From the NCBI GenBank assembly GCA_049516875.1, contig JBEKSS010000002.1, forward strand, positions 32,001 to 96,000: a DNA stretch of 64,000 nt, in the 5' to 3' direction. Below, piece after piece: positions 19,091 through 63,874 of this stretch. Source of the stretch: Candidatus Bathyarchaeia archaeon (lineage in GTDB: Archaea; Thermoproteota; Bathyarchaeia; Bathyarchaeales; Bathycorpusculaceae). A program made the translations under genes and the position numbers. Numbering within the stretch: the stretch's first letter is position 1; each line of letters starts with the position of its first letter. The notes below the pieces were generated by a model that did not search any database, was not told where the DNA came from, and was given only the letters and a program-made list of their open reading frames with translations.

Positions 19091-19639
19091 CACACAAACC
19101 GAGGACTACCGACCTTTTCGCCTTCCAACCCAACTTTTTCCTATCTTTTTCTAGCTCTGCAGAGAGGTTTATTTGAGGTTCCAACTAAACAAAACATCAT
19201 ACGACTCTGCCCCGTTTTCGCCTAGACCCCCTAGTTTTTTGCTTGCATGAAGCCTCCGACGTATCATAGTTTGTGGTATCAGAACCCTTAGACTATGCCG
19301 CGCGTCGGGTTTGTGCCTACGACGAAAGGTGATGTCACCCCAACCCCCTTTTTCCACCCAGAAAGGAATGGTCTGTGCATAGGTTGCTAAACATCAACCT
19401 ATTGAACTGTGGAGACCGCTGGGCGCGCGCTTCAATCGTCCTCATTCATTCTAGTCTACGATATTGTTTCATAATGGGACTACACGAGAATATCGGTCTG
19501 CCTAACGCTACGTAGACATAGCACAGCACTGAACGACAAGTAAATATCATAGATGTCGATTCGTGGTTAGTATACCTTATTATCAACTGGAACAAACACT
19601 TTAAATCTCAGCCGTTTGGAAAAGGGAAAGAGGGTCAAT

Positions 19640-20008
19640 ATGGACCAAGAAGGAAAGGAAGAATATACCGAATTCCTCAACCTCATAAAGATATTCATTT
19701 CCATGCTTAGCGAGAACGGTAAGTTGATTACGAAGATGGGAGAAATAGAGAAGAGATTTCCGAACGAATTCAAGATGATGAAAGAGTTCTCTCCGGAGAG
19801 ACTTGATGCTTTTGTGGAAAAAGCACCACCTGAGATTGCAGGCCTGTTCCTGAAAATAATGCTCAGGGCGGCGGCTATGGGGCCAAAGACTAGTAGAGCC
19901 ATGGAACTGCCGGCTGAAGAAAAACTCGAACTTGGGAAGCAGATAAACGAGCTCGTCAAAGATCTAGAAATCCTCTTGAAAAAAGTTGAAGAGGAGAGTA
20001 AGAAATGA
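19640..20008 (+). CDS. Hypothetical helical protein, first gene of the island operon
   Basis: ATG 19640 after TTTAAAT near 19600; E/K-rich helical sequence; ATGA overlap with the next gene. Confidence 0.75.
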   Translation: MDQEGKEEYTEFLNLIKIFISMLSENGKLITKMGEIEKRFPNEFKMMKEFSPERLDAFVEKAPPEIAGLFLKIMLRAAAMGPKTSRAMELPAEEKLELGKQINELVKDLEILLKKVEEESKK

Positions 20009-20376
20009 GCCTAGAACCACAACAACTGTTTTCAGGGTTATGGTCATCAATCAGAGAAGGACTAATCTCGATGTTTTTCCCGTCTGATTTGTTGCACCCG
20101 ATAGAAAAGGCGGCACAGTACATTTCCACAAAGTTCGAACAGAATGTTGTTCTGGAAACAGATATGATTCTCAAACAAACAACGCTGAAAACCATCATAG
20201 GACCAGAAGATCACTATCAGAGACTATGCCTCAGATCTCTTGCAGGTCTTCCCGCGATTCCTAGGACCATTAACGAAAACCCTGTAAGCGTGACAGACCT
20301 CAAAGGTTGCTTATCTTGGGTCTCAAAAGGCAAGATCGATGTAACTGAACTTATCCGAGAAATCCGGGATAGCTAA
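20005..20376 (+). CDS. Putative antitoxin with VapB-like C-terminus
   Basis: Ends DLKGCL...KIDVTELIREIRDS, resembling archaeal antitoxin tails; TAATG coupling to the PIN gene. Confidence 0.55.
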   Translation: MSLEPQQLFSGLWSSIREGLISMFFPSDLLHPIEKAAQYISTKFEQNVVLETDMILKQTTLKTIIGPEDHYQRLCLRSLAGLPAIPRTINENPVSVTDLKGCLSWVSKGKIDVTELIREIRDS

Positions 20377-21026
20377 TGACCGATTCTGCACCAGTGAGAA
20401 TCTATCCGGATACCAACATTCTTGTCTCGTATTCATTAGGGGATTCAGATGAGAACTTTGAACTTGCTGAAAAGCTGTTCGAAGAAGTCCAGAATAACAA
20501 ATACATGATGGTGGTCTCCAATTTCACCCTAATGGAGACTCTGCATGCGCTTCGGACAATAGTCACGAAAATGAAATATCAAGAACTTGACAACAGCCCA
20601 TCTCAAGGCGATTTGATACAAATCGCAAACTCAAAACCTTTCGAAGAAACTGTACACAAAGAGAGCATGAAGGCCTTCAGCACGATCATCGACAAGATAA
20701 CGAAAGACACACAACACTTCAGTTTCGAACCAGACGGCTTAACATACCCAAACGAAACATTTGCGGCAGGTCTCCCCTTGCTGTTGGCAACCAAAGGATC
20801 TTTTCGCGTATACAGGTTTCGCTGCCAGAAATGCAACAGCTATCTGAAATGCTCTTCCTGCAGAGTTGATAGCGAGATTGTCTATAAGGAAGCAAATGCT
20901 CCAGATCTAGTTCACCTATTGATATCAGAGCGGCTCGGATGCAAACTGTTTTTCACCATGGACAAATCCTTCGCAAACATACCCATTAAAGATGGGCGAG
21001 TGAAGATAGAAGTATTAGCAAAGTGA
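20376..21026 (+). CDS. PIN-domain (VapC-like) nuclease with Zn-ribbon insertion
   Basis: IYPDTNILVS, SNFTLMETL, DLVHL, FFTMDKSF acidic PIN motifs; CQKC...CSSC insertion. Confidence 0.85.
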   Translation: MTDSAPVRIYPDTNILVSYSLGDSDENFELAEKLFEEVQNNKYMMVVSNFTLMETLHALRTIVTKMKYQELDNSPSQGDLIQIANSKPFEETVHKESMKAFSTIIDKITKDTQHFSFEPDGLTYPNETFAAGLPLLLATKGSFRVYRFRCQKCNSYLKCSSCRVDSEIVYKEANAPDLVHLLISERLGCKLFFTMDKSFANIPIKDGRVKIEVLAK

Positions 21027-21389
21027 ACGCACGACAGATGAACCTGTCATAAGGAAACGCTTTGCCGACAACAAATAGAAAAAAGAGGATATGCAGGAGA
21101 CTTCACCACTTTTCTTGAGTTCAAGTCCTATCGGCGGCGCCACGCCTCTGTTCTTTGGTGTTCCAGAAGGACATTTAGCACACACCAGCTCCGCGCGAGC
21201 GAACTTGCACGGGGGCCAACAGGATTGCCTCCACGACATAACACGCGCATCTACAAAGTCTCCCGTCTGTTCCTAATGACCATCCACGGTCAGTGCTAGC
21301 CCTCGTTCAAACACGCGCTCTAGGTCAACATGAAAGCCGATTAGCAACCAACTCTGTGTGCATCATGCCATACGGCAAAGTGTTGATGG

Positions 21390-21450
21390 TTTTGACACTC
21401 AAAGAAATCACGGATTGAGTACTCAAACACAAGGGCTCGAAACCCAACAT
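21390..21450 (+). repeat. Dispersed ~55 bp double-palindrome repeat, copy 1
   Basis: ttttgacactcaaagaaatcacggattgagtactcaaacacaagggctc; 3' of pyrB. Confidence 0.85.
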
Positions 21451-21491
21451 TAAACCCCACGAGAAGTATGTTGACGCGCCATAATCATGGG

Positions 21492-22439
<948 letters not shown>

Positions 22440-22546
22440 CTACTAGATAACCCTTGTCAACAACGCAAAACCGCGCGGCCAGGGCAAGGGTTAAAGTCTT
22501 TTATTCGTGTTCCGATCATAAGCCTTCTCTCAGAGGGAAATCTGGC

Positions 22547-23011
22547 TTGAGCGAAACAGAGCTGCGGGTTTCCAAAATCAGAGACGGCACGGTAATCGAT
22601 CACATCACCGGCGGCCACGCCCTAGACGTTGCCAAAATCCTGGGAATAACGGGCCGCGAGAAAGGACCCATAACCATAGCCATCAACGTTCCAAGCAAAC
22701 GGTTCAGAACAAAGGACATCCTCAAAATCGAGGGCAGAGAACTCAACCCTCAGGAAGTGCACAAAATCGCCCTCATAGCGCCACACGCGACCATCAACAT
22801 CGTCCGCAACTACAAGGTGATAAAAAAACAAGAAGTCAAGCTGCCGAAGACCATAGAGAACATCATCAAGTGCGCGAACCCCGCTTGCATAAGCAACAGC
22901 AACGAGCCTGTTAAACCCAAATTCTACGTTGAATCCGAGGATCCCCTGTTGCTGAAGTGTCATTACTGCGGCAACATCATCGAGAAAAAGGATTTACTCC
23001 AACAGTTCTAG
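22547..23011 (+). CDS. pyrI: Aspartate carbamoyltransferase regulatory subunit
   Basis: LRVSKIRDGTVIDHI, CANPACIS, CHYC; likely start TTG 22547 rather than 22454. Confidence 0.95.
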   Translation: MSETELRVSKIRDGTVIDHITGGHALDVAKILGITGREKGPITIAINVPSKRFRTKDILKIEGRELNPQEVHKIALIAPHATINIVRNYKVIKKQEVKLPKTIENIIKCANPACISNSNEPVKPKFYVESEDPLLLKCHYCGNIIEKKDLLQQF

Positions 23012-23133
23012 CCTCCAACGAGAATCCAACTCGACGAAACGTTTATATCGTAAGATAGCATATTGTATAAGTGGATAGGTCTGGAAACAGACATATTGTA
23101 TCCGTGGAGAACACAAATACAGATGGTGAAAAC

Positions 23134-23472
23134 ATGTATGAACTGTTTACCTCCAATCTGTGGATCCTCACGCCCACGACGTGGGTGTGTTTCACAATGT
23201 ACCTAGGATGGTACTTCACGAGGGCAAAACGTTTTTCCCCAGTAACCCCGGCAGAAGCAAGACAGCTATGGACCATTCACAAACAGACTGCGCACTGTGA
23301 AGGCAAGAAGTGGCGGCGGGTGAAGAACGGAAACCAAACCGTGGGTTTCCAGTGCGAATGCGGATACAGACACGTGCAGAAAAAGCCGCTAATTACTCAC
23401 GCGCCTGCCACTCTGAACACCCCCGAAATCTCCGCTTTCGACAGGCTACACACCTCACACAAATCAGCATAA
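23134..23472 (+). CDS. Small membrane-anchored Zn-finger hypothetical protein
   Basis: GGTGA SD before ATG 23134; N-terminal hydrophobic segment; H..HC and CECG. Confidence 0.65.
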   Translation: MYELFTSNLWILTPTTWVCFTMYLGWYFTRAKRFSPVTPAEARQLWTIHKQTAHCEGKKWRRVKNGNQTVGFQCECGYRHVQKKPLITHAPATLNTPEISAFDRLHTSHKSA

Positions 23473-23639
23473 GCCTTCACCCGAGCAAGAACGGGCAACC
23501 ATGATGACACAGCGAGAGCAGCGCGCTTAATGACCAAAAACCAGGCTTTGTTCTAACTTCAGCTACGAAACAGCCGCTGCGACGTCTATGGAACACGGCC
23601 GGTTCGGCAACGGTGACTCGCCGTAACTCCCCTTGCCAT

Positions 23640-24110
23640 CTAGGCACCGAGTTGCCGGCAGGCTCGCCTAAACAGTCCTTCAAAGTAGTCTTTTTCCAGC
23701 TTCTTGCCCTCACCTATTCCGGGGCATTCCTGTGTGCAGAAGAATCCGTGTTTTCCGTCCTTCATTCCTCTCAGCTCGAACGGGTAGAAAACGCACACCA
23801 AAGGCCTAAGCTCGTAAACACTGCAGTTTCTTCCCTCAAGAAAAAAACATTTTCCCTCTTCACCAGTTTTTCTCATCTCGTAAACGTAAGGCTCTTGGCC
23901 CTCGATCTCCACCGCAAACGTCTCAACCGGCTTCAGAACGGCCTTCGAGATTGCCTGAGCCTCTCCCCACAAGAGCAGAACATGCCTCCTTCGACTCTTC
24001 GTGTCTCCACAACAAAGCGCACACCTCGTGCATTGAAAACACACATCTCTGGGATAGCTAAAACCCGCTCTCCCCCGCGATGTCACGCACTCACGACTCA
24101 AGGCTCTCAC
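23640..24110 (-). CDS. YkgJ-family (CxxCxxCC) cysteine-cluster protein
   Basis: FQCTRCALCC, CFFL...CSVYELRPLVCVFYPF, CPGIG. Confidence 0.9.
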   Translation of the reverse strand: MRALSRECVTSRGRAGFSYPRDVCFQCTRCALCCGDTKSRRRHVLLLWGEAQAISKAVLKPVETFAVEIEGQEPYVYEMRKTGEEGKCFFLEGRNCSVYELRPLVCVFYPFELRGMKDGKHGFFCTQECPGIGEGKKLEKDYFEGLFRRACRQLGA

Positions 24111-24292
24111 AACTCAAGTTCAAGTTTCCGGTCTTGCGCAGCCGACAGCGTTCTATTGAAAACCGCAGATATATACCTTCAACCCAAAGCAAAACACCCG
24201 TAGCAGCGCAAGAGCAGTCCACGCTTCACATCAACATCAAAGCCAATCAGCAACAATCCTGCTCGCGCCTCAAGCGCAGAAGGCCGTTCACG

Positions 24293-24353
24293 TTTTGAGA
24301 CTCAAAGAAATCACGGATTGAGTACTCAAACACAAGGACTCAAAACACAACAT
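24293..24353 (+). repeat. Double-palindrome repeat, copy 2
   Basis: ttttgagactcaaagaaatcacggattgagtactcaaacacaaggactc; 3' of tRNA-Pro. Confidence 0.85.
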
Positions 24354-24391
24354 ACCCACAACCAAAAAACAACATCGCACAAACAGCAGAA

Positions 24392-24469
24392 TGGTGGGGC
24401 TGCCCGGATTTGAACCGGGGTCACGAACGCCCGAGGCTCATAGCCTAGACCAAACTAGCCGACAGCCCC
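24392..24469 (-). tRNA. tRNA-Pro(CGG), CCA encoded
   Basis: Reverse complement GGGGCTG...TGAGC-CTCGGGC-GTTCG...CCCGG-TTCAAAT-CCGGG-CAGCCCC-ACCA. Confidence 0.93.
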
Positions 24470-24578
24470 AAACCCTTCACCCATTCCTATTTCCAAAACC
24501 ACAAAATAAGCCTATCCCAACACCTTTAAACCCCACACACCCAAAATAGTACACCCCCACCACCACAGAGGCCAAACC

Positions 24579-26771
24579 TTGTCCGCCAGCCACCGCACCC
24601 ACGGAATCAAAATCCTCAAAGCCATAGGCTCACCCCTAAGACTGCAAATCCTGAACCTCCTTTTCGACAAAGGCTCCCTCAGCTACACGGAACTCATGAG
24701 CAACTTGAAAATGAACCCAAGCAGAGACGCAGGAAGATTCGCCTACCACCTCAAATTCCTCCTCAAAGCAGACCTCATCGAAGCCATCGTCGACCAAAAA
24801 AAATACGGCCTAACCGACCTCGGCAAAATGGTCATCGACGTCGCCGACAGAATAGACAAAAAAGCCTACAAAACAAAAAACACACTCATCCGCGCCAGTA
24901 GATCAGCCATAGAAGAATTCGACGCCAACAAAATCGCAAACGCACTAATAAAAGAAGCCAAAATGCCCCCCGAACAAGCACAAAAAATAGCCAAAGAAGC
25001 CGAAACCCAACTCCTCAAATCCAAAACCAAATACCTAACCACCCCACTCGTGAGAGAACTCGTAAACGCCATCCTCATCGAAAAAGGCCTCGAAGAATAC
25101 CGAAACAAACTCACACGCCTCGGAATACCCGTCCACGACGTCACCAACCTCCTACACACACAGCAACAACCAACAAGCCCGCTGGAAGCAGCAGGACAAA
25201 CAGTCTTCAAAGAATACACACTCCTGAACACGTTGCCAAGAGACATCGCAGACGCCCACCTCTCAGGCGCCCTACACATCAACAACCTCAGCACATGGAT
25301 ACTCAAACCCACAGAAACCGTACACGACATCAGATTCTTCCTACAAAACGGCCTAAACCTAGAAACAATCAACCCCACCCAAACCAACCAACCCCCACCC
25401 CACAACCTGGACACAGCCCTAACAACACTCTTCAACGTCCTCCTCCACTCACAAAAAGAAACAGAAACAACCCAAACACTCGAATACTTCAACACCCTCC
25501 TCGGCCCATACACAAAAAACCAGGAACCAGCAAAAACAAAAGAAGCACTGCACCAGTTCATAACAAACCTAAGCCAACACACAGACACCGCCATAAGCCT
25601 AGAACTCACGACACCAGGCTTTTTAGCCGAAAAAACCGCCATCGCACCAGACGGCAAACAAGCCGGCAAGTACGCGGACTACACGGAAGAAACCCAGCAG
25701 CTAGCATCACTGCTCCTGGACACATTCACCGAAGAAAGCGCTCAAAAACCGTTGGTCAACCCCAAACTCATCATCAAAATACGCCCAGAAACACTCAAAG
25801 ACGAAACAGCAAAAGCCACACTCCTCAAAGCCCACGCACTTGTAGCACACAACGGCACACCATACTTCGCCAGCTTAACAGAGCATAAACAAACAGTCCA
25901 CACCCCTTCAGGGTTCAAACTGGACGCCGAAGCAGACGACGACTGGGAAATCGACACTCTCCGCACCGGACTCCTGGGCACTGTAACAGTAAACGTGCCA
26001 CGTGTAGCCTACGAATCTGGAAACGACAAGACAAAGTTCCTCGAAACGCTCAAGGAAAGACTTGAAATGGCAAACCGCGCCCTGGAAATCAAACACCAAG
26101 CCCTAAGACAACACGGCAAGAACCTGCTCCCATTCCTCATGCAGAACACCGACGGCGACCAGTACTTCAGACTCGAAAAAAGCATACACACGATAAACCT
26201 GGCAGGACTGACAGAAGCCGCAGAAGCCTTCACGGGCAAGAGCATCGAAGACGAGAAAACCGTAGCCTTCGTCCAAGAAACCGCACAGAACATCACAACG
26301 TTCATAAACAAAATCGGAAGAAAACGCGGAAAACACCTGTACGCAGCAACGATGCCAAACCCCGAAGCCTCAGCAAGACTGGCACAACTGGACATCGAAA
26401 GATACGGAATCGCAAGAGTCCACTTCTCAGGCACAAGAGACAAACCCTACTACTCCACAACAGACACAGTCACACTCAAGAACGGCAACATCCCCCAACA
26501 ACCCCAAACGACGAGGAGCAGAACAAGCCAAACACGCACGGGCGGAAACCTAACGCTGATCGAACTCGACGAGACACAACACGAACCAGAACAGCTTCTT
26601 TCGGTAACTAGGCAACTCGTAGAAAACCGCAACATGGAATTCTTCACCTACAACCGCAAAACAACCTACTGCACAAACTGCAAAAAAACTTGGCCCGGCC
26701 AGGCACACAAGTGCCCCCAATGCAACGCCGTGAGCACACTCACGTACTACGACAGATCCGACCAAACCTAG
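24579..26771 (+). CDS. ArsR-HTH + ATP-cone + class III ribonucleotide reductase (NrdD)-like fusion, probably catalytically inactive
   Basis: SPLRLQILNLL...FAYHLKFL HTH; EEFDANKIANAL...LTTPLVRELVNAIL ATP-cone; DAHLSGALHIN, VTVNVPRVA, TYCTNC...CPQC NrdD features; no C-terminal RxxGY. Confidence 0.82.
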   Translation: MSASHRTHGIKILKAIGSPLRLQILNLLFDKGSLSYTELMSNLKMNPSRDAGRFAYHLKFLLKADLIEAIVDQKKYGLTDLGKMVIDVADRIDKKAYKTKNTLIRASRSAIEEFDANKIANALIKEAKMPPEQAQKIAKEAETQLLKSKTKYLTTPLVRELVNAILIEKGLEEYRNKLTRLGIPVHDVTNLLHTQQQPTSPLEAAGQTVFKEYTLLNTLPRDIADAHLSGALHINNLSTWILKPTETVHDIRFFLQNGLNLETINPTQTNQPPPHNLDTALTTLFNVLLHSQKETETTQTLEYFNTLLGPYTKNQEPAKTKEALHQFITNLSQHTDTAISLELTTPGFLAEKTAIAPDGKQAGKYADYTEETQQLASLLLDTFTEESAQKPLVNPKLIIKIRPETLKDETAKATLLKAHALVAHNGTPYFASLTEHKQTVHTPSGFKLDAEADDDWEIDTLRTGLLGTVTVNVPRVAYESGNDKTKFLETLKERLEMANRALEIKHQALRQHGKNLLPFLMQNTDGDQYFRLEKSIHTINLAGLTEAAEAFTGKSIEDEKTVAFVQETAQNITTFINKIGRKRGKHLYAATMPNPEASARLAQLDIERYGIARVHFSGTRDKPYYSTTDTVTLKNGNIPQQPQTTRSRTSQTRTGGNLTLIELDETQHEPEQLLSVTRQLVENRNMEFFTYNRKTTYCTNCKKTWPGQAHKCPQCNAVSTLTYYDRSDQT

Positions 26772-26805
26772 ATAGTAGTGTTCTGCATTGTAACCTTCTG
26801 CTGGT

Positions 26806-26867
26806 ATGTTGGCTTGTGAGCCCTTTTGTTTGAGTGCTCAATCCGTGATTTCTTTGAGACTCAAAAC
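26806..26867 (-). repeat. Double-palindrome repeat, copy 3 (inverted)
   Basis: Reverse complement gttttgagtctcaaagaaatcacggattgagcactcaaacaaaagggctc. Confidence 0.85.
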
Positions 26868-26954
26868 ATTGTTGAAGCATGTTGGTTTGAAGCTTTTTTT
26901 ACTCAATTCTGCCTGGTTTTTGAGTGTCAAAAGTTTCGGCATGCTGAGTTTCTC

Positions 26955-27015
26955 ATGTTAGAGTCGGAGGCCTTGCGTTTGAGTACTCGATGCGTGATTT
27001 TTTTGGGTGTCAAAA
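26955..27015 (-). repeat. Double-palindrome repeat, copy 4 (inverted, diverged)
   Basis: gccttgcgtttgagtactcgatgcgtgatttttttgggtgtcaaaa. Confidence 0.75.
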
Positions 27016-54504: not shown

Positions 54505-54766
54505 TCTAGCATTGAATGAAACACAGTGTACGCGCGCTGATGATGCGTAATGAACATCGAGTTGAAGTTACTGAACCGCGAAAAGCATGCAATACCAGGT
54601 GGAACACCAAAATACTTGAAACGAAAGATAGTGGTCTTGGTCATCGCTGTCTAAAGACGCACCTATTTGATAGATTTTTCAAGAAATATCAGGCTGTTTG
54701 GAGGCTCGGTTTCTGTTGACAAAAAGTACAAAAAAGCCCTTATAACGAAAAAATCGTTGAACAATC

Positions 54767-55804
54767 ATGATTGCGGAGAGAGCGGGCTTCATGAAGAACA
54801 CTGGGAACGTCATGAGTGGCAAACCTCGCGTGAGTATCGGTTTGCCAGTGTTCAACGGTGAGAAATACCTCAAAGAAGCATTGGACTCTATTCTGGCTCA
54901 GACATATTCAGATTTCGAGTTAGTGATCTCTGATAATGCATCCACTGACCGAACTGAACAGATTTGCCGAGAGTACGCGGCCAAAGACAGACGAATCTGC
55001 TATTATCATAACGAAAAGAATATTGGGGCTCCTAAGAATTTTAACCGCGTCTTTGAGTTGTCCTCGGGTGAATATTTCAAATGGATCGCATATGATGATG
55101 TATACGCTCCGGAGTTTTTACAGAAGTGTGTAGCTGTACTTGACAAGGACCCATCCGCCGTCTTGTGTCACTCTAAGACCAGCCGCATCGATGAAAATGG
55201 CACCTTGGTAGGAAACTACGATCACAGGACGCTGAGGAGAATTAGTTCGTGGAAGCCGCATGAACGTTTTGGCGACTTGATCAGCATACGCAATCCATGT
55301 TGGGCGGTTTTCGGGGTGGTACGTGCGAGTTCATTTAAAAAGACGCCGCTTCATGGAAGTTACATTGGAGCAGACAGAAATCTGTTGGCAGAAATTGGTC
55401 TTATGGGTCGAATAATTGAAATTCCAGAACACCTGTTTTTCAGACGAGATCACCCCGAAGCTTATACTAGAAAGTTTTGCGAAAACAAGTTCGCAATAAG
55501 TGTAGATAATTACGCCGAACAATTGGCTTGGTGGTCAAAAGACGATTGGACTAACTTCCCCAACTGGAAGGACTGCGCTGAATTTTTCAGGTCTGTAAAC
55601 CGTGTCCCACTTAAGTGGTCTGAGCGACTGGCATGCTACAACCAAATATTCAGATGGTTTATCAAGGAAGGCTGGTTTTTTATGGGGGGCGACATAGAAA
55701 ATCTATTATTGCGCCGTTCACGCCTTGGACGCAAGTTGATTCCATTCGTCAAGTTGAACCTGAGGCACACAGTTATTCCAATCATCAAAAAATTCAGACG
55801 GTAA
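54767..55804 (+). CDS. GT2 glycosyltransferase
   Basis: PRVSIGLPVFNGE, ISDNASTD, YFKWIAYDD. Confidence 0.92.
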   Translation: MIAERAGFMKNTGNVMSGKPRVSIGLPVFNGEKYLKEALDSILAQTYSDFELVISDNASTDRTEQICREYAAKDRRICYYHNEKNIGAPKNFNRVFELSSGEYFKWIAYDDVYAPEFLQKCVAVLDKDPSAVLCHSKTSRIDENGTLVGNYDHRTLRRISSWKPHERFGDLISIRNPCWAVFGVVRASSFKKTPLHGSYIGADRNLLAEIGLMGRIIEIPEHLFFRRDHPEAYTRKFCENKFAISVDNYAEQLAWWSKDDWTNFPNWKDCAEFFRSVNRVPLKWSERLACYNQIFRWFIKEGWFFMGGDIENLLLRRSRLGRKLIPFVKLNLRHTVIPIIKKFRR

Positions 55805-55943
55805 AATGGAAGTACCATTCTCGCTGAAGCTTTGAGCACCTGATCGATCGCGCTCTAACTATTGGCAAACCACAAGGAAAAATAGGAGCCGCCTCATCTA
55901 ACTACATCACAATAAGACGGAATACGAAAGGAAGGTAAAGGGT

Positions 55944-56993
55944 ATGCGTGTTTTAGTTACGGGTCATAGAGGATACATAGGTTCGATTATGGTGCCTATG
56001 CTTGAAGGGGCCGGGTACGAAGTTGTGGGGCTTGATAATGACCTTTTCGACGGGTGCATATTTGGTGATCCGTCGATTGCTGGAGACATCCCTGCCATTC
56101 CATACGTGAAAAAAGATATCCGTGACATTGAACGATCAGACTTACAAAACTGTGATGCTGTCGTCCATCTGGCTGCGCTGTCAAACGACCCACTTGGCTA
56201 TTTCAACCCGCAAATAACGGATGAAATCAATCATAAGGCTTCGGTTAAGTTGGCCAAGCTGGCTAAGAAGGCCGGAGTCCGACGCTATATCTTCTCATCG
56301 ACGTGCAGTGTCTACGGTGCCTCCACAGCTGACACTGTGAATGAGGAATCCAAACCGCGACCCATCACACCGTATGCCGTTTCAAAGATACGTTCGGAAA
56401 AAGATATCTCCAAGCTGGCGGACTCGAGTTTCAGTCCAACCTTCTTACGCTCTGCAACAGCCTATGGCGTATCTCCTCTACTTCGGTTCGATCTGGTTCT
56501 CAACAATCTGGTTGCTTGGGCTCACACTACTGGAACTGTATTGTTAAAGAGTGACGGCATGGCGTGGCGTCCAATCGTACACATTGAGGACATATCGCGA
56601 GCTTTTGTGGCTGTCCTAGATGCATCTCACGACTTGATTCACAACGAGATTTTCAATGTGGGCATCAACGAGGAGAACTATCGGGTGCGGGAACTTGCTG
56701 AGATTGTGAAAGACACGGTTCCCGATTCACGGATTGAGTATGCAAAGGATGCTGAACCAGACAAACGTTCTTATCGGGTCAACTTTAACAAGATTTCCCA
56801 GACACTGCCCGAGTTCAAGCCTCAATGGAACGCGCGTCGAGGAGCCAAGCAGCTTTACGAGGTCTACAAGAAGGTTGGTTTCACTTTGGAGGAGTTTGAA
56901 GGACCTAGGTATAGACGCATTTCGCATATTGAGGAAGGCATTAAGACGGACCGTTTGGACAAAACGCTGCGTAGAAGAAATGTCAAGATATAA
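55944..56993 (+). CDS. NAD-dependent epimerase/dehydratase
   Basis: VTGHRGYIG, HLAALSNDP, YAVSK, RFDLVLNN. Confidence 0.9.
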   Translation: MRVLVTGHRGYIGSIMVPMLEGAGYEVVGLDNDLFDGCIFGDPSIAGDIPAIPYVKKDIRDIERSDLQNCDAVVHLAALSNDPLGYFNPQITDEINHKASVKLAKLAKKAGVRRYIFSSTCSVYGASTADTVNEESKPRPITPYAVSKIRSEKDISKLADSSFSPTFLRSATAYGVSPLLRFDLVLNNLVAWAHTTGTVLLKSDGMAWRPIVHIEDISRAFVAVLDASHDLIHNEIFNVGINEENYRVRELAEIVKDTVPDSRIEYAKDAEPDKRSYRVNFNKISQTLPEFKPQWNARRGAKQLYEVYKKVGFTLEEFEGPRYRRISHIEEGIKTDRLDKTLRRRNVKI

Positions 56994-57066
56994 ATAGCGC
57001 AGGCCAAGCGTTCCATTGTAGAAAATCTATTCTCTGAGGGCGCGCAAACTGGCGGAGCATTCTAAT

Positions 57067-58299
57067 ATGACTGAGGCAATGGGAAATGAACAATCAGGTA
57101 TTCATTGTTCATTATGTGGTTCGTCGGGATTGTGGGTTTTCTATGAAGTGACGGATGTTCCTGCGAGCTGCAATCTCCTATGGAGAAGCAAGGATGAAGC
57201 CATCAACTGTCCCAAAGGGAACATCAAACTAGCGTTCTGTCCGTTTTGTACCTTTGTGACAAACATTGCAGTGGAGCCAGAGAAAAACCAATACGGTCAT
57301 CGCTATGACGACTCCCTGTTTTACTCCCCTCACTTTCAAGATTTCGCGAGAAAACTGGCGATCAACCTGATCCAACGTTACGATCTGCATAACAAGAGCA
57401 TTATTGAAATAGGAGGCGGGAAGGTTGACTTTCTCTCCTTGCTGATCGAATTGGGGAACAACCATGGACTAAGGTTTGATCCTTTCTTAATGAAGGTTGA
57501 AGACAAAAGTCGAGAGTCAGTCGAATCAATTCCAAGCTTCTATCCACAGCTAGATAGGAGTAACAAAGCCGATTTTGTTTTCTCCTACTGCGAACTTGAG
57601 CACATGAATTATCCCAAAAACTTCCTGAGTAATTTGCGAAAAATATTCGGTTGCAGTTCAAAGACTCATGTTTTCTTTGCAGTACCAAATGCACTGAAGG
57701 CCTTTGAGGAAGGAGATTTCACGAACATTATCTACGAGCATGTTTCATATTTCACCATCCCCTCCTTGTTTCATCTTTTTTCTTCCTGCGGATTTAACAT
57801 CTCCGAGGTTACGGAGTCCAAAAATGGAGTCTTCGACTCAATTTACATTGATGCCACCCCCAAGACCCGAATGAAGTCAAGCTTCAAGCCGCATTTAAAA
57901 CCGGAAGCAGGCGAAATCAAAGACGGCATCACCTCATTTGCTGCCAAGTCGACCAACACGATCGAAAAATACAGCAGCAGACTCAAGCAGTTACTTAACA
58001 AAGGAAAACGAGTAGTCATATGGGGAGCCGGTTCAAGAGGCGTTACTTTATTGAATATCCTCAAGGATCCACGGATAGAATATGCTGTAGACATAAATCC
58101 CCGCAAGCAAGGTAAGTATGTGCCAGGAACAGGACAAAAAATTGTGGAACCGAAATTCTTGCTCACGCACCAGCCAGACTACATAATTTTAGCAAATGCA
58201 GCGTATGAAAATGAGATCAGGCATATCATAAGCAATCTTGAAATAAAGACCGAATTCATTCAGATCCAACATTCAGGATTAACTAATTGCTATTCCTAA
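57067..58299 (+). CDS. NDP-sugar C-methyltransferase family
   Basis: CSLC/CPFC Zn site, EIGGG, IYEHVSYF, WGAGSRG, VDINPRKQGKYVPGT. Confidence 0.85.
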   Translation: MTEAMGNEQSGIHCSLCGSSGLWVFYEVTDVPASCNLLWRSKDEAINCPKGNIKLAFCPFCTFVTNIAVEPEKNQYGHRYDDSLFYSPHFQDFARKLAINLIQRYDLHNKSIIEIGGGKVDFLSLLIELGNNHGLRFDPFLMKVEDKSRESVESIPSFYPQLDRSNKADFVFSYCELEHMNYPKNFLSNLRKIFGCSSKTHVFFAVPNALKAFEEGDFTNIIYEHVSYFTIPSLFHLFSSCGFNISEVTESKNGVFDSIYIDATPKTRMKSSFKPHLKPEAGEIKDGITSFAAKSTNTIEKYSSRLKQLLNKGKRVVIWGAGSRGVTLLNILKDPRIEYAVDINPRKQGKYVPGTGQKIVEPKFLLTHQPDYIILANAAYENEIRHIISNLEIKTEFIQIQHSGLTNCYS

Positions 58300-58450
58300 G
58301 AAGAGACGAAAAAAGCGACTGCAATTAGCGTTAGTCATCCGAAAGAATCCGAATTACCGAACTGTCGACCCAGACGCCCTTGACCGATTTCAACGCAAAT
58401 GGTTAAATTCTTGTCCAAACCTCAAACCTAGTTGACGCGGAGACACTGTT

Positions 58451-59512
58451 TTGAATCGATACTCAAGTCTGAGTGAGTCACAGTGGGTCGATCGATCGAT
58501 CGATCGTCGTGAATTTGGGTGGACAGGAGTCAAGGTCTCCGATATCGGCATGGGGACGTATTATGGCCACTCGTACGAAATCATGGCGCCACTCTTCCGT
58601 CTCCAAGGAGGGTGGGATAAAAAGATAGCCGCTTTAAAGGAGGGTTTGAGTCTCCTCCGTCAGCAAGGAGGGTGGCATAAGAAGATAGCCGCTTTGAACA
58701 AGGCTTTGACTCTCCTCCGTCAGCAAGGAAGTATGAGTGAGAAGATAGAGGCTTTGAAGAAGGGTTTGGAGCTTGGGATAAACCTCATAGACACTGCAGA
58801 AATTTATCAAACAGAGGATATAGTCGCAGAGGCGATCAAAGGCCACGAGAGGGGTGATTTATTCATTGCGACGAAGGTTCCTGGGAATAATCTCAGATAT
58901 GACGATGTTTTGAAGGCTGCTGAAAATAGTCTGAATAGGCTTGAGTGCTCTTACATCGATCTCTATCAGATTCATTGGCCGAACTCGAGAGTTCCTATTG
59001 AGGAGACTATGAAGGCGATGGAGAAGCTCGTGGACGATGGGAAGGTCAGATACCTAGGCGTGAGCAACTTCTCCTTAGAACAGATGAGGAGGGCCGAGGA
59101 AGCCCTCTCGAAGAACAAGCTTGCCTCCAACCAAGTTGAATACAATTTAATGGTTAGAGGAATAGAGAAGGATCTCCTCCCCTATTGTGAGCAGAAGGGT
59201 ATCGTTATCTTGCCCTACAGGCCAATCGCCCAAGGTACCCTAGCCAATCCCAACGAGAGACTCAAGGCAGTTATGGACGAGATTTCGCAGAAACACGGCG
59301 GCAAAACTCCGGCGCAGATAGCCCTCAACTGGTTGATGACCAAGAGCAACGTGATCTTTCCGATCCCGAGGGCTTCCAGACCGGAGCGAGTAATCGAGAA
59401 CGTCGGCTCAGTAGGCTGGAGCCTTGGCATTGAAGACATGAGAAAGCTAGAGGAGTGTGCGCATCTATCGATGCAAGTAGCACAAAACAGAAAAAAAGGG
59501 AATCACCGGTGA
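58451..59512 (+). CDS. Aldo/keto reductase with an internal 3x20 aa repeat
   Basis: TGVKVSDIGMGT, IDTAEIY, IATK, DLYQIHWP, LGVSNF. Confidence 0.92.
   Translation: MNRYSSLSESQWVDRSIDRREFGWTGVKVSDIGMGTYYGHSYEIMAPLFRLQGGWDKKIAALKEGLSLLRQQGGWHKKIAALNKALTLLRQQGSMSEKIEALKKGLELGINLIDTAEIYQTEDIVAEAIKGHERGDLFIATKVPGNNLRYDDVLKAAENSLNRLECSYIDLYQIHWPNSRVPIEETMKAMEKLVDDGKVRYLGVSNFSLEQMRRAEEALSKNKLASNQVEYNLMVRGIEKDLLPYCEQKGIVILPYRPIAQGTLANPNERLKAVMDEISQKHGGKTPAQIALNWLMTKSNVIFPIPRASRPERVIENVGSVGWSLGIEDMRKLEECAHLSMQVAQNRKKGNHR
58591..58770 (+). repeat. Three in-frame tandem 60 bp repeats inside the AKR gene
   Basis: Units start at 58591, 58651 and 58711 (ct.ctccgt...caagga...aagatag...gcttt). Confidence 0.9.
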
Positions 59513-59527
59513 TGTCTCCACTGGAGT

Positions 59528-60472
59528 GTGGTTCAAATCATTCATTTAGCGCGTTTAAGTCTGAACTGGCGCATGCCAGGTGATCCTATGATGGATCCTG
59601 AACCAATTGACGTTATCATGTGCACTTGGAATAGCAATAAGCTGCATTTCCGAAAATGCCTACTGTCTATTAAAAGAGAGGTTGACGTTCACCACTTTAT
59701 CGTCATCGACAGATATTCATCGGACGGAACCTTAAGAGTCGTACGAAGCGTGTTTCCAGATGCAAAGGTTTTTCAAACCACTGCCAACCTAGCTACGGCA
59801 CAAAGGATTGGCATAAAATACGCCGATACAACATATCTTGTTCTCATCGACGACGACATAGAGGTTTCTGTGGGGTGGTTCAGAAAGATGATTTCCTTCA
59901 TCAAAGGCGGAAAACAAGTCGCGGCTGTGCAAGGTTTCACGAGGTATTATCCAAGCTACATGGACAAGCCACGCCTGCTTGATCTTGGTCGTCGAAAAGG
60001 ACAAGTCAAGGAAATCACAGATGGTGCGTGGACGCACGACGCTGTTCTCATGGCAGAAGCGGTGAAAGATTTCAATCCTAGGCAGATAACTCATTCGCGG
60101 GGAGATTTCCTAATGGTACAACACGTTATCAAAAAAGGGTACAAGTGGTTCGAGATGAATCAGGTTCAAGCAACCCACTACAGAGGTTCTGACAGAGGTT
60201 TCTTGGGCGATCTTCACAAGAATTTTCTGAAGGAAAAGTGGAATGGAGCTAATGATAGATTCGTTCGCATGCATTCCTCTTCATGCAGTCGAGCAATTGC
60301 CCCCCTTCTACTGAACTTCCTCAAAACCACTCTATACTTTTCGAAAATATCGATTGCCACATCAGATCCAAGAATATCGTTACTCTACCTTTCGGGACAT
60401 TTCGGATACTTGAAGGGGTTTCTCTCCGCGAACGATAACATCGTGCCATACGAACTTCACACGCCAAGCTAG
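59528..60472 (+). CDS. GT2 glycosyltransferase
   Basis: DVIMCTWNS, IDRYSSDGT, LIDDDI. Confidence 0.85.
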   Translation: MVQIIHLARLSLNWRMPGDPMMDPEPIDVIMCTWNSNKLHFRKCLLSIKREVDVHHFIVIDRYSSDGTLRVVRSVFPDAKVFQTTANLATAQRIGIKYADTTYLVLIDDDIEVSVGWFRKMISFIKGGKQVAAVQGFTRYYPSYMDKPRLLDLGRRKGQVKEITDGAWTHDAVLMAEAVKDFNPRQITHSRGDFLMVQHVIKKGYKWFEMNQVQATHYRGSDRGFLGDLHKNFLKEKWNGANDRFVRMHSSSCSRAIAPLLLNFLKTTLYFSKISIATSDPRISLLYLSGHFGYLKGFLSANDNIVPYELHTPS

Positions 60473-60700
60473 CACGATGGTATGGGAAGTGTTAAAGGTG
60501 GTGGGCGCTCAGGCCATGTTATGATCGAGATCGATCGATCATCGATCTGACGTTTTGAGAAAAAGATATACTCCCTGATGCGCTAAGGTGATTAAGGATG
60601 CTTAAAGTGAATGAACTGACCAGTTTCAGCGAGTTTGGGAATCAAAAAGATGTTTGGAACAAAACTCAAATTGCTTTAGGCTCGAGAAGAGGCGAATTTT

Positions 60701-61735
60701 TTGTCTGGATACGCTGTTGTTGAAAACCCGTCGGCTGAATTATGGAATTCCTTCTTGAAGATGTTTCCTGAAATGAATTTTGAACAGTGTTTTGAGTATG
60801 GCGAAATATCAAAAATGGCATATCCACGAACAAAAGTTGCTAGACTATCCATCACGTACAACGGAGAACCGGTCGGAATAGTTCAAGGAACATATTCGAG
60901 CTATTTCGGCTTCGGTATGACATTGAGAGTAATGCGGGGTCCAATCGTAAACACAGGAACAAAGGAGAATTTTCGGCTAGTTGGGAGTCTTCTGAAAGAA
61001 CTCGAAGACTATAGCAAGAGAAGACGGATAATACACGCACAAATATCGGTTCCTGACTCTTGGCAACTCCAGGAAGTATTCCGCAAAATGAGCTACACGT
61101 CAGCTGATGAAACTAATGAGTACGTTGTGAACCTTCAAGAAGGAATGCAAAAGCTTTGGAAAAGCATTGACCATAATAAGAGGAGAAACATAAAAAAGGC
61201 CGTGAAAGAAGGAGTGGAAATCGTTCAATCACGCAGCCACGAAGATCTAAAAGCCTTCTACTCAATGGTCGAAGCCTCGGTAGAAAGGAGAGGGTACTCA
61301 CCATACCCTCGCTCATGGTTTGAGGCAATATGGAAAATATACAAGCCTGAGTTATCAAAGGTCTTTTTAGCATACTGGAAAGGGAAAAGCGTTTCAGGAG
61401 TCTTCATCGTAGTCCGGGGAAAAACCGTTTACGCATTGGGTGCTGGCTCACTCACCAAAGGATGGGAAGTTAGACCTAACGATATAATGCACTGGAAGGT
61501 CATGGAATGGGCCTACGAAAATGGTTATTCAAAGTATCATATGGGATTGGTTGATGAACCTCCTCCAACCGAAGAATCTTGTGCTTGGGGGATTTGGAGA
61601 TGGAAAAGAGAGTGGAACGGGAGCCTAATAAGAATCCAAAAATTTGACAAGATTCTCCTACCAAAATACAAGCTCATACTTCAAGCTGAAAAATTCGCTG
61701 TACGTGGTTATAAGGGCATCAGACGATTAAAATAG
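60701..61735 (+). CDS. FemAB/FemX-like (GNAT-fold) aminoacyl/acyl-transferase
   Basis: RGPI, LWKSIDHNKRRNIKKAVKEGVEI, PNDIMHWKVMEWA, WKREWNG. Confidence 0.82.
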   Translation: MSGYAVVENPSAELWNSFLKMFPEMNFEQCFEYGEISKMAYPRTKVARLSITYNGEPVGIVQGTYSSYFGFGMTLRVMRGPIVNTGTKENFRLVGSLLKELEDYSKRRRIIHAQISVPDSWQLQEVFRKMSYTSADETNEYVVNLQEGMQKLWKSIDHNKRRNIKKAVKEGVEIVQSRSHEDLKAFYSMVEASVERRGYSPYPRSWFEAIWKIYKPELSKVFLAYWKGKSVSGVFIVVRGKTVYALGAGSLTKGWEVRPNDIMHWKVMEWAYENGYSKYHMGLVDEPPPTEESCAWGIWRWKREWNGSLIRIQKFDKILLPKYKLILQAEKFAVRGYKGIRRLK

Positions 61736-62119
61736 TCAATTCACACGCGCTTCCAATTGGTTAACCAAATCAGCATTGCTAGTGAAAAGTCCAACGATGT
61801 TTGGTATCAAAAGGTCTGAGCGCGCGCGTGTTCCAAATGTTCAGATGTTCGTATACTGTTCGTATGTAAATGAATGGAAACAGAGCAAAGTTCGCTTTCG
61901 TTTTGTATCTATTGCGAAAAAAGCTTCCGAATGTCAAAGGTGGAAAAAACATCGTTATAAGATTTAGCGGAAAAAGAATTCTCCAAATCAAGAAATGTTT
62001 GTCTCCAGATTTTTTGTATAGCAAGACCCTATTTCTCATGCTCATTTCTTTCTTTCCTTTTTCTCTATTTCGTTGACGATAGTGCCCTAGAGGAGCTTTC
62101 CACAAGTATTATCTTCGGA

Positions 62120-63787
62120 ATGCAACCAATTGGGCTTAGGAGAACGGACTTGGTCAGAAGAACCGTTTCTGGGATAACGCTCACGTTATTGTTAACCAGC
62201 GTCCTAGCGTTGACGTTTATCATTCAACCGGTGGGGGCGAGTGATACTATTTACATACGGGCTGACGGATACATAGACCCACCAACTGCACGAATCTCGA
62301 CGCTTGACAACGTCACTTATACATTCACTGGCAACATCAATGATTCTGTTGTGGTGGAGAGAGACAACCTGGTGATTGATGGAGCAGGATACACGCTTCA
62401 GGCAAGTGGAGGCGGCATTGGGATAGACGTTTCGGGTAGGAACAACGTGACAATTAAAAACACAACCATCCAAGGACTCTACTCTGGCATCTATCTCGAT
62501 AAGTCTTCTAACAACAACAGTATAGCTGGAAACAACATAACAAGCAACATCTTTGGCATCTGGTTCGATTCTTCTTCAATCAACAGCGTAAGCGGGAACA
62601 ACATAACAAGCAACGACGTTGGCATCTGGTTCAATTCTTCTTCAATCAACAGCGTAAGCGGGAACAACATAACAAGCAACGACGTTGGCATCTGGTTCAA
62701 TTCTTCTTCAAACAACAGCGTAAGCGGAAACATGTTTTTCAATGACGGTTTGGTTGTTTGGGATTCTCATGATAATGTTGTGGAGGATAATTTGGTGAAT
62801 GGTAGAACCCTCGTGTATCTTGAGGGTGTTTCAGACTACGCTGTTGGCGACGCTGGACAAGTTATACTCGTGAACTGCAACCACATAAAAGTGGAAAACC
62901 TCAACCTGTCCAAAGCAACCATGGGCGTACAACTGTGGAGAACGAGCTACACGACAATAGTTGGAAACGACATAACAGGCAACAGCAACGTTGGCATCAG
63001 GTTCGATTCTTCTTCAATCAACAGCGTAAGCGGGAACAACATAACAAGCAACGACGTTGGCATCTGGTTCAATTCTTCTTCAAACAACAGCATAAGTGGG
63101 AACAACATAACAGAAAACAGCATTGGCATCGCTTTCGATTCTTCTTCAAACGACAGCGTTTACCATAACGACTTTGTTAATAACACACTTCAAGTCTACA
63201 GCAGTCTGTCTATGAATGTTTGGGATGATGGTTATTCTTCTGGCGGCAACTACTGGAGTGACTATGCTGGAATAGACTTGCACAATGGTGTCTATCAGAA
63301 TGAAACAGGTTCTGACTGGATTGGCGATTCGCCTTACATCATAAATCAGAACAACACCGACAGATATCCGTTGATGCATCCTTTTGCTCTGGAAATGCAG
63401 AAATACGAAGTAGCGTTCAGAGATCTTTTAGACCGATATGATGAGATGTATTCAGAACTTGTGGCTTTGAACTCAACTTGCAGAAGCCTCCAAGAATCGA
63501 TTAGCAATTTAACAATAACCTGTGACCTGACACGTGCCAATCTCCAGGGGCATATCAACTCACTGAACAGTACATGCGTCGGTTTGAGTCAGTCACTTAC
63601 AGACCTACAAGGACAATTGAACGGCCTGAACTCAACAATACAAGCATCCATCAATGGATTACAAGAGAAATACAACTCACTGAGCAATCAAGTCAACAAT
63701 CTCCTGAACCTTGTGTATGTCCTCGTAGGTCTGTCAGTCGTTCTCATAATAGTGACGATCTATATTGCAACAAGAAACCGAAGATGA
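62120..63787 (+). CDS. Cell-surface NosD/PbH1 beta-helix protein with coiled-coil stalk and C-terminal TM anchor
   Basis: IYIRADG.IDPPTA, 22-aa GNNITSNDVGIWFNSSSINSVS repeats, GGNYWSDY, heptad region, TM. Confidence 0.87.
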   Translation: MQPIGLRRTDLVRRTVSGITLTLLLTSVLALTFIIQPVGASDTIYIRADGYIDPPTARISTLDNVTYTFTGNINDSVVVERDNLVIDGAGYTLQASGGGIGIDVSGRNNVTIKNTTIQGLYSGIYLDKSSNNNSIAGNNITSNIFGIWFDSSSINSVSGNNITSNDVGIWFNSSSINSVSGNNITSNDVGIWFNSSSNNSVSGNMFFNDGLVVWDSHDNVVEDNLVNGRTLVYLEGVSDYAVGDAGQVILVNCNHIKVENLNLSKATMGVQLWRTSYTTIVGNDITGNSNVGIRFDSSSINSVSGNNITSNDVGIWFNSSSNNSISGNNITENSIGIAFDSSSNDSVYHNDFVNNTLQVYSSLSMNVWDDGYSSGGNYWSDYAGIDLHNGVYQNETGSDWIGDSPYIINQNNTDRYPLMHPFALEMQKYEVAFRDLLDRYDEMYSELVALNSTCRSLQESISNLTITCDLTRANLQGHINSLNSTCVGLSQSLTDLQGQLNGLNSTIQASINGLQEKYNSLSNQVNNLLNLVYVLVGLSVVLIIVTIYIATRNRR

Positions 63788-63874
63788 TACCTCAGACAGA
63801 AATGGAAACTAGCAAAGAACCTGGTAAGAAGCGCGCGCTGTTTTAGTGAAGAAGATGGTAAGACGAAAGATTGA

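Follow-up and report, generated by a model that had tools for sequence, protein, structure and literature searches.

HIP1 (GCGATCGC) of cyanobacteria is a highly iterated palindrome (HIP), frequent inside genes and tied to cognate methyltransferases. HIP1 and alternate words of this kind are reportedly treated by Robinson (1995) and, with regard to the cognate methyltransferase, by Elhai (2015). Repetitive extragenic palindromes (REP), bacterial interspersed mosaic elements (BIME) and integron attC sites are intergenic palindromes as well, often located at the borders of variable cassettes. [quoted passage not shown] In the Ku-LigD non-homologous end joining (NHEJ) of Mycobacterium and Streptomyces, Ku, a primase-polymerase, a ligase and a 3'-phosphoesterase are encoded together, and LigD POL has gap-filling and terminal-transferase activities (excerpts of PMC8656161 and PMC5869714). 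Prokaryotic NHEJ scars show 1-4 nt fill-in, non-templated additions or captured DNA fragments (PMC5869714); scars of this kind are not known to have a fixed sequence. Here we analyzed the (GC)n and (GATC)n tracts of a 64,000-nucleotide stretch (the window) from the genome of a Candidatus Bathyarchaeia archaeon. These tracts are probably junction scars, that is, short self-complementary filler at sites in the non-conserved part of the genome where two DNA ends have been joined.

The window corresponds to positions 32001-96000 of contig C2 of G000, a metagenome-assembled genome (MAG) of 2.43 Mb in 20 contigs with 47% GC. The genus set comprised five genomes (G000-G004), to which 26 other genomes of the family and order were added. 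Long open reading frames (ORFs), covering 81% of G000 with 19% outside, were used as a proxy for genes. A first-pass annotation of the window, made from its letters alone, had proposed a check of GCGCGCGC and GATCGATC for genome-wide enrichment. Enrichment was borne out for GCGCGCGC, the top 8-mer of G000 (447 copies versus 23.3 expected from base composition), whereas GATCGATC was found at its genome-wide expectation (46 versus 36.6). The five congeners contain 447, 168, 460, 253 and 646 copies of GCGCGCGC. In 24 of the 26 other genomes only 0 to 30 copies were counted (7 in G010), the exceptions being G018 (227, with a near-equal reversed control) and G024 (53). No description of GCGCGCGC or similar tracts in archaea was found in the literature looked up on the GCGCGC word and highly iterated palindromes. 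The genome density of 416 (GC)n runs per 2.43 Mb predicts about 11 runs for the window, close to the 14 present, so the excess belongs to the genome as a whole rather than to this stretch.

The (GC)n runs of G000 displayed a preferred length. Their numbers were 503, 204, 240, 112, 56 and 5 for lengths of 6, 7, 8, 9, 10 and 11 bp, with 3 runs of at least 12 bp, and this peak at 8 bp is unlike the smooth decay of the (AT)n, (AC)n and (AG)n profiles. Exact 8-bp runs were mostly in the GCGCGCGC phase (212, versus 28 in the CGCGCGCG phase). The flanks were weakly palindromic, of the form T-A-tract-T-A. TA was found on the left of 70 (33%), on the right of 65 (31%) and on both sides of 23 of the 212 (GC)4 tracts, against a background of 5% per side; by our own arithmetic, only about 0.1 occurrences of TA(GC)4TA would be expected. 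The neighboring base was A at -1 in 152 and T at +1 in 136 of these tracts, and 98 of them read A(GC)4T. Only 6 of the 416 (GC) tracts had paralogous flanks, and conservation did not extend beyond 2 bp on either side. A longer repeat, MITE or REP unit containing the tract was thus ruled out.

Most (GC) tracts (330 of 416) lie outside long ORFs, and spacers with a tract are longer than the others (median 395 bp versus 127 bp). Tract density did not differ between tandem, divergent and convergent spacers and rose only mildly 0-60 bp after stops; a promoter or terminator role was rejected on these grounds. The tracts were over-dispersed (variance 4.3 for a mean of 1.7 per 10 kb), and no fixed spacing between tract pairs was detected in G000. 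The two densest 10-kb bins (C7:10-20 kb and C12:60-70 kb) contain long spacers and ordinary genes, encoding PolB, CDC48, TFE, GNATs and methyltransferases; their annotation revealed no candidate enzyme. As intergenic palindromes, often at the borders of variable cassettes, the tracts resemble REP, BIME and attC sequences. However, they measure 8-10 bp, have no conserved flanks and no useful stem-loop length, and also occur within genes and where pseudogene fragments end. Neither an integron integrase nor a RAYT was seen, no search having been aimed at either.

The first-pass annotation had also predicted that tracts would coincide with breakpoints, and they do so both within the genome and against a sister species. 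Within G000, homology blocks stopped within 12 bp of 32 tracts and crossed 6, whereas 20000 random positions, drawn with an equal intergenic share, gave 483 stops and 1660 crossings (odds ratio 18, p = 2.6e-15). In a cruder test, 48 of 2580 block ends fell at tracts versus 21 +/- 4.6. The sister comparison was made with one contig, G002:C1, representing 245 kb of about 2.3 Mb. A tract, in one or the other genome, lay just beyond 16 of the 162 alignment ends, versus 2.0 +/- 1.4 (maximum 6 in 300 trials) for shifted controls. At 75-90% identity, however, the ends of alignments are imprecise; moreover, neither these ends nor the repeats are independent, and the shifted control ignores gene-end position. 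None of 66 tracts was located inside the aligned 42% of this contig, and in an earlier pass 1 and 0 tracts were counted over 96 kb of aligned DNA. Over about 90-100 kb of synteny, 3 tracts were counted in G000 and 14 in G002, with at most one in common; the single apparently common tract is C2:179872 in G000 (G002:204630). Altogether, the tracts are hyper-abundant, are kept out of conserved alignable DNA and mostly do not share positions between sister species.

The window was scanned by script for (GC)n and (GATC)n runs of at least 8 bp. Exactly the 14 (GC)n and 11 (GATC)n runs of the first-pass annotation were recovered, all at the starts it had given, together with its three hybrids (42361, 48867 and 55842). 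Its remark that por, pyr and rfbA-C are free of tracts was also correct, with zero runs of at least 8 bp in window positions 1-19422 and 30870-42364. The tracts and the features associated with them are as follows, in window coordinates, a strand being assigned only where it is given.

19423-19430: GCGCGCGC, intergenic, at the left edge of the PIN-domain segment 19423-21143
28316-28323: GCGCGCGC, upstream of gene 28435-29136 in non-conserved DNA; the next tract is 5 bp away
28329-28336: ATCGATCG, partner of the GC tract at 28316
30829-30836: GCGCGCGC, in the convergent gap between ORF 29306-30652 and the rmlD-like gene 30884-31762
30860-30869: CGCGCGCGCG, in the same 30652-30884 gap, 23 bp after the tract at 30829
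42365-42373: CGCGCGCGC, intergenic, part of the hybrid cgat+CGCGCGCGC that starts at 42361
42421-42428: GCGCGCGC, intergenic, flanked by ct and ta; homology to the paralogous copy stops just before it
46044-64000: left part of the glycan island, low in GC and variable (whole island G000:C2:78043-115171)
46045-46050: GCGCGC 6-mer, a few bp past the GT4 stop, at the end of G002 synteny (about 46043)
46067-46077: ATCGATCGATC, first (GATC)n of the island, 24 bp past the end of synteny
46100-46167: truncated MITE, right-hand part with the degenerate terminal repeat GGAACAGCCATGCGCCC
46759-46769, plus strand: GCGCGCGCGCG, in the dockerin/lectin ORF 46261-47625, encoding LARAR
47062-47074, plus strand: ATCGATCGATCGA, in ORF 46261-47625, encoding IDRS at the joint between the lectin and C-terminal domains
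47735-47744: GCGCGCGCGC, intergenic, flanked by tta on both sides
47756-47764: CGATCGATC, 11 bp after the tract at 47735 and 9 bp ahead of ORF 47773
48368-48376, plus strand: GCGCGCGCG, within the methyltransferase ORF 47773-48564
48550-48560, plus strand: GATCGATCGAT, in the last codons (YDRSI-stop, 48547-48564) of ORF 47773-48564
48607-48614: GCGCGCGC, intergenic
48673-48681: GATCGATCG, intergenic
48734-48740: GGCGCGC, flanked by TA on both sides, abutting the left end of gene fragment 48748-48865
48748-48865, plus strand: 118-bp fragment of a GT4 glycosyltransferase gene, a copy of 42948-43065 with 86% identity
48866-48882: 17-bp filler AGCGCGATCGATCGATC between the gene fragment and the copied segment, containing most of the hybrid tract 48867-48884
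48883-49014, plus strand: copied segment, 75% identical to 42281-42413 (3' end of gene 41102-42316 and spacer)
51886-51895: GATCGATCGA, intergenic
53037-53044, plus strand: GCGCGCGC, flanked by ta on both sides, in the last codons (MVARAR-stop, 53031-53051) of the GT2 ORF 52023-53051
53813-53825, plus strand: GCGCGCGCGCGCG, inside ORF 53083-54504 (no Pfam family)
55842-55850: GATCGATCG followed by cgc (hybrid), intergenic
58488-58506: TCGATCGATCGATCGATCG, the longest tract (19 bp), 37 nt into the longest ORF 58451-59512
60529-60540: GATCGATCGATC, intergenic, inside a longer near-palindrome
61820-61828: GCGCGCGCG, downstream of ORF 60701-61735, in a doubtful 108-aa minus-strand ORF
63831-63838: GCGCGCGC, intergenic, between ORF 62120-63787 and the next gene

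Several joints could be read exactly. In the window, the GT4 piece 48748-48865 (from 42948-43065) is fused to the copy of 42281-42413 in the wrong order. The gap is filled by AGCGCGATCGATCGATC, TA-GGCGCGC-TA is present at the left end, and the parental sequences have no tract there. This piece is a pseudogene remnant with tracts on both sides. At a second joint, G002:C1:1-743 and 753-1257 match G000:C12 at 98% and 92%, and GCGCGCGC followed by T in G002 replaces 2203 bp of G000:C12. At a third, GCGCGCGCG stands in G002 exactly where the G000 coding homology begins, G000 being continuous and free of a tract. Finally, a 281-bp copy of C14:35866-36146, located at C7:14349-14624, is bracketed by CGCGCGCGCG and GCGCGCGCG. 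Since the parental or sister sequences have no tract at these joints, recombination between pre-existing tracts does not explain them. Near the tract at 28316, homology to G002 restarts about 20-30 bp downstream.

The idea that some tracts inside genes act as in-frame insertions or new C-termini also held when MVARAR-stop and YDRSI-stop were read and LARAR and IDRS were compared with homologues. The last codons and the stop context of two genes are tract-derived (MVARAR-stop and YDRSI-stop). LARAR, encoded by an 11-bp GC tract, is found where six homologues have 2-4 residues (net +3 versus four of them), and is a three-residue insertion in the conserved lectin domain. IDRS occurs at the same spot in two of four aligned GH5-fused N-terminal homologues (P0003 and P0005), one of them with a duplicated flank; the DNA of these two proteins was not found in the nine genomes searched. 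DNA homology to C2:62092-62649 begins 6 bp after the tract at 47062. The ORF at 58451 has an aldo/keto-reductase match that starts only at residue 92, so the tract at 58488 may precede the true start.

ORF 46261-47625 is itself chimeric, with a dockerin-lectin N-terminus that is fused elsewhere to GH5 cellulases. Its C-terminal domain, about 180 residues long and without a Pfam family, also occurs in ORFs 29306-30652 and 49208-49954. Peptidase C25/dockerin proteins and archaeal HTH fusions are encoded too and agree with a Bathyarchaeia assignment, as do the relatives of the PyrB protein, every one of which is labelled as a MAG of Bathyarchaeia or Bathyarchaeota.

The first-pass annotation had assigned the tracts to intergenic gaps, gene ends and the variable glycan region, and had tied them to the surface-glycan locus. 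They are indeed found at all these places, but the (GC)n tracts are genus-wide and occur in all non-conserved DNA; only the (GATC)n tracts are local, in compositionally foreign DNA. Of 68 (GATC)n runs in G000, 25 fall within C2:78067-116097 (38 kb, from window position 46067 onward), and 20 of the 37 runs of at least 9 bp are inside the C2:78-116 kb island. Their heavy tail of long runs is unique among the tetranucleotide classes. The GATCGATC excess is specific to G000, with 46 copies versus 7 for a control and 4-16 copies in the congeners. The island spans 37 kb with a GC content of 39-46%, and codes for glycosyltransferases, enzymes of sugar modification and unknown proteins. The 30 relatives searched gave no DNA match to it except for scattered paralogous domains. 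G002 synteny stops at about window position 46043, just past the GT4 stop codon, with GCGCGC only a few bases further on and the first (GATC)n 24 bp beyond. The counterpart island of G002 contains 19 (GC)4 tracts in about 23 kb and few GATC runs. GATC is the most under-represented 4-mer palindrome of G000 (observed/expected 0.64; AGCGCT 0.85). Its ratio is 1.01 in the island versus 0.64 in the rest of the genome, which marks the island as compositionally foreign. We infer that the island was acquired horizontally and that the (GATC)n tracts are confined to it. The further proposal that tracts diversify the surface glycan was not upheld: nothing shows adaptive diversification, and the link is incidental to a genome-wide property.

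GATC avoidance outside the island hints at a GATC-directed constraint in the host lineage. A (GATC)3-rich donor lineage was sought among 401 Bathyarchaeia genomes and rejected, G000 itself being the highest with 7. The reversed control word CTAGCTAGCTAG, a self-complementary tetranucleotide tract of a different lineage, reached 22, 17 and 8 copies in three genomes of Bathyarchaeia family f31 (G142, G107 and G089), and 0-1 copies in nearly all of the other 398.

A candidate joining machinery is encoded by G000 itself. The locus C9:90981-94517 (L146) contains genes for a LigD primase-polymerase (285 aa, LigD_Prim-Pol 277 bits), Ku (269 aa, 139 bits) and a ligase fused to a 3'-phosphoesterase (ligase and LigD_N). 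This archaeal locus is a complete end-joining operon of the Ku-LigD type. Ku was found in three of the five congeners (G000, G002 and G004) and in one of the 26 other relatives (G010). Of the enzymes that the first-pass annotation had suggested as candidates, a LigD-type primase-polymerase is thus present, while no PolX palm domain was found in G000.

The genus also harbors mobile elements ending in the tract word. About 25 MITEs of about 184 bp are present in G000 (for example C9:103893-104080), with copies also in G001-G004. Their ends are TA-GCGCGCATGC...GCATGCGCGC-TA; the first family reads TA-GCGCGCATGC(N)TGTTCC and a second family GCGCGCTG(G/C)CTTGTCC. TA was found on both sides in 11 of 22 terminal-repeat pairs. 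An insertion sequence (IS) of 1102 bp, located at C7:36805-37906 and likewise ending in GCGCGC, codes for a protein of 307 residues with DDE_Tnp_1 and DUF772 domains, taken from this domain content as an IS5-type transposase. Terminal-repeat matches numbered 55, 14, 54, 9 and 87 in the five congeners and 0-6 in the 26 other genomes. Elements with matching GCGCGC ends and TA target duplication therefore coexist with the tracts in the same genome, and in G002 a truncated MITE is fused directly to GCGCGCGC. The MITE remnant of the window was recognized at C2:78151-78167 (2 mismatches) and by flank matches to MITE copies on C2, C3 and C7.

An IS630/mariner-type transposase was rejected as a source: PF13358 is absent from G000 and its sole hit in the genus, on G004:C58, was judged irrelevant. 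That contig (L116; 1.9 kb, also given as 1.8 kb) looks circular, its first 127 bases being repeated at the end. It encodes a GC-rich IS630-type DDE_3 transposase, has no GCGCGC ends and probably does not belong to the MAG. Window positions 26802-27005 hold a dispersed repeat, about 205 bp long and with at least 6-8 genome copies (C1, C2, C3, C11 and C14), that is unrelated to the GCGCGC-ended MITEs.

From these elements a route to the scars can be proposed. The Ku-LigD-type operon of G000 would be the joining machine, and the GC letters would come mainly from the ends of the genus-specific IS5-family IS and the ~184-bp MITEs, which insert at TA and have GCGCGC at both termini. End joining after excision, after aborted transposition or after a rearrangement mediated by the IS would yield TA-GCGC-GCGC-TA, in which four bases of each element end stand between the duplicated TA; a varying register would give 6, 8 or 10 bp. 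IS-mediated rearrangement with later loss of the element could leave scars at joints. The (GATC)n tracts may be the same kind of joint filler, sometimes nested in a GC scar as in TA-GCGC-(GATC)3-GC-A-TA. Selection would purge scars from conserved genes, while in-frame or gene-end scars would survive. Such a transposon origin explains the TA signal, the word itself, the genus specificity and the non-coding bias. It would resemble Tc1/mariner-Stowaway footprints in that scars fall mostly outside genes and a matching MITE family is present in these genomes. It differs from them in the IS5-type transposase (DDE_Tnp_1 and DUF772), in having TA on only about one third of tract sides, in tracts that outnumber the elements many-fold, and in tracts found also at large indel and rearrangement joints. 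We know of no prokaryote with a genome-wide footprint load of such size. As in Ku-LigD scars, extra bases and captured DNA fragments are seen, here exactly at joints, but the filler is a constant self-complementary word.

Several observations weigh against this origin. Tracts exceed terminal-repeat matches 7- to 28-fold, and are only about 1.4-1.5 times nearer to terminal-repeat motifs than random intergenic sites. TA stands on both sides of only 23 of the 212 (GC)4 tracts, and some validated joints have none, for example 'gctgGCGCGCGCGagaa' in G002. For 17 of 20 MITE loci of G004 no collinear flanks exist in G000 and the other 3 were uninformative, so that no series of occupied, empty and scarred sites was obtained; no scar was seen in G000 opposite the one G002 MITE site examined. 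By analogy with mariner, self-complementary 4-nt GCGC 3' overhangs should anneal and give TAGCGCTA. This word is not enriched in G000 (13 copies), and an 8-bp scar would thus need both ends filled or a longer stagger. No element with (GATC)n termini was found when looked for, which leaves the (GATC)n letters unexplained. Ku was not found in G003 (93% complete, 253 tracts) or G001 (77% complete), and is present in G010 despite only 7 tracts; the trait and Ku do not match one-to-one. Finally, some tracts face non-tract sequence of the same length. GCGCGCGC is opposite GCGTGCGT in G004 (at the position equivalent to 19423, with two C/T differences), and opposite GCACGCAT and CGCGGGAG; GCGCGC is opposite GGTCGC; and the tract at 42365 is opposite TTCGTTTTC in the paralogous copy 48883-49014. 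In our reading, these counterparts are older tracts that have decayed, largely through CpG transitions; an origin of the tracts by substitution fits as well. Overall, a transposon-end and end-joining origin of the scars has in our view somewhat less than an even chance, while their more general interpretation as junction scars is probable.

If the tracts are joint scars, the sites and the frequency of DNA cutting and rejoining in an uncultured archaeal lineage can be read from its sequence. They delimit glycan cassettes, pseudogene debris and domain swaps such as the dockerin-lectin chimera. Such scars would also be rare genomic evidence of Ku-LigD and a transposon family jointly shaping an archaeal genome. 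The word can be used for mapping the boundaries of the flexible genome in these MAGs.

An alternative is that GCGCGCGC is a HIP-like word, a lineage-specific highly iterated palindrome whose frequency in non-coding DNA would be maintained by selection, as a protein-binding or Z-DNA-forming site, or by biased repair. It would be only secondarily fragile or recombination-prone, and the transposon ends would mimic the host word. As in HIP1, a lineage-specific palindromic octamer is the most over-represented word of the genome, here with a sharp preferred length. Its equal density in the three spacer types, the same-length substitution variants opposite tracts and the one tract apparently common to G000 and G002 (C2:179872, G002:204630) are also in line with this view. 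However, the parents and sisters of the exact joints have no tract at the matching place, and positions are mostly not shared (3 versus 14 tracts, at most one in common). Unlike HIP1, which is common inside genes, the word is nearly absent from conserved genes and marks DNA joints. A C5 cytosine methylase was rejected as a driver, PF00145 being above cut-off in none of the five congeners. We thus regard a HIP-like word as unlikely.

Another alternative is the undescribed process favored by the first-pass annotation, in which a polymerase/ligase would tail broken ends with self-complementary (GC)n or (GATC)n, the tails then pairing and being sealed. Pure-tract filler at joints with tract-free parents, some without TA, would be explained in this way, as would the hybrid GC/GATC tracts and the truncated MITE joined directly to GCGCGCGC in G002. 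A LigD-type primase-polymerase is encoded, and (CTAG)3 is in excess in another Bathyarchaeia family. In this process the TA flank signal and the identity with transposon ends are left unexplained, G010 has Ku-LigD yet almost no tracts, and (GATC)n is limited to one island of one genome. We know of no such tail-writing activity. None was found in the literature looked up, which concerned the GCGCGC word and highly iterated palindromes and not such an enzyme activity. With a Ku-LigD operon and a genus-specific TA-GCGCGC transposon/MITE family offering a known route, an undescribed process is not needed, and such a writer is quite improbable. In a broader form, this genus, and perhaps lineages with other words such as (CTAG)n, would stamp a fixed self-complementary repeat on broken ends before sealing them, by an activity that may be a LigD-type primase-polymerase or a transposase-derived enzyme. 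We hold this to be rather unlikely. If true, every insertion, deletion and domain swap of the flexible genome would bear a readable (GC)n/(GATC)n stamp, and letters written de novo would represent a new DNA repair chemistry.

Restriction cleavage followed by fill-in, the route that the first-pass annotation had given as established, could produce the same letters. Host endonucleases would make staggered cuts (5'-GATC, or 5'-GCGC at sites like A^GCGCT) in DNA that is incoming or unprotected; fill-in by the LigD polymerase and blunt ligation would then duplicate the overhang, giving GATCGATC or A-GCGCGCGC-T (AGCGCT to AGCGCGCGCT). The GATC ratios of 0.64 in the genome and 1.01 in the island, the ratio of 0.85 for AGCGCT, the A at -1 (152/212) and T at +1 (136/212), and the concentration of tracts in foreign or variable DNA all agree with this scheme. 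The duplication would destroy the site, which would explain a stable 8-bp product. The Ku-LigD operon is present, and fill-in of recessed ends is known from NHEJ scars (excerpts of PMC5869714). However, for the GATC or GCGC restriction-modification systems that the first-pass annotation had pointed to, no enzyme specific for either site was identified, and neither a C5 methylase in the congeners nor a Dam-type methylase (PF02086) in G000 was found, PF01555 being above cut-off at five loci, one with internal stop codons. Many (GATC)n tracts have partial units, such as ATC+(GATC)2+GA, and reach 19 bp, and are thus not simple 4-bp duplications. The paralogous source of the 118-bp fragment has no GATC or GCGC at its ends, and in none of the comparisons did a lone AGCGCT or GATC face a tract. 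Nor does this scheme account for the enriched T at -2, the enriched A at +2 or the match with MITE ends. This scheme is therefore decidedly doubtful.

That errors of assembly or amplification, or plain compositional effects, account for the tracts is almost inconceivable even for a MAG, since the trait recurs in five separately assembled congeners, GCGCGCGC is 19-fold above composition, contigs L150 and L151 from two other metagenome assemblies (window 40261-52266 and 40261-53622, with 0 and 1 mismatches) have zero differences within 2 bp of the 13 and 14 tracts of at least 8 bp that they cover, and seven runs from seven studies, two of them possibly the source, contain 80-99% of the words sampled from window 46001-56000. 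Repeat number was also constant, the 13 and 14 tracts, of only 2-4.75 units each, having the same length in these two assemblies, which argues against phase-variable repeats of a simple-sequence contingency locus.

The tract at 19423 borders a 1.7-kb PIN-domain gene segment (19423-21143) that is 95.5% identical to a different locus, on G004:C17, while the flanking core genes are 81-87% identical. This suggests that the segment is a recently exchanged mobile module. In the surrounding region (window 17392-26778), the radical-SAM, pyrB and nrdD blocks are arranged A-B-C in G000 and C-B-A, in the same orientation, in G002 and G004.

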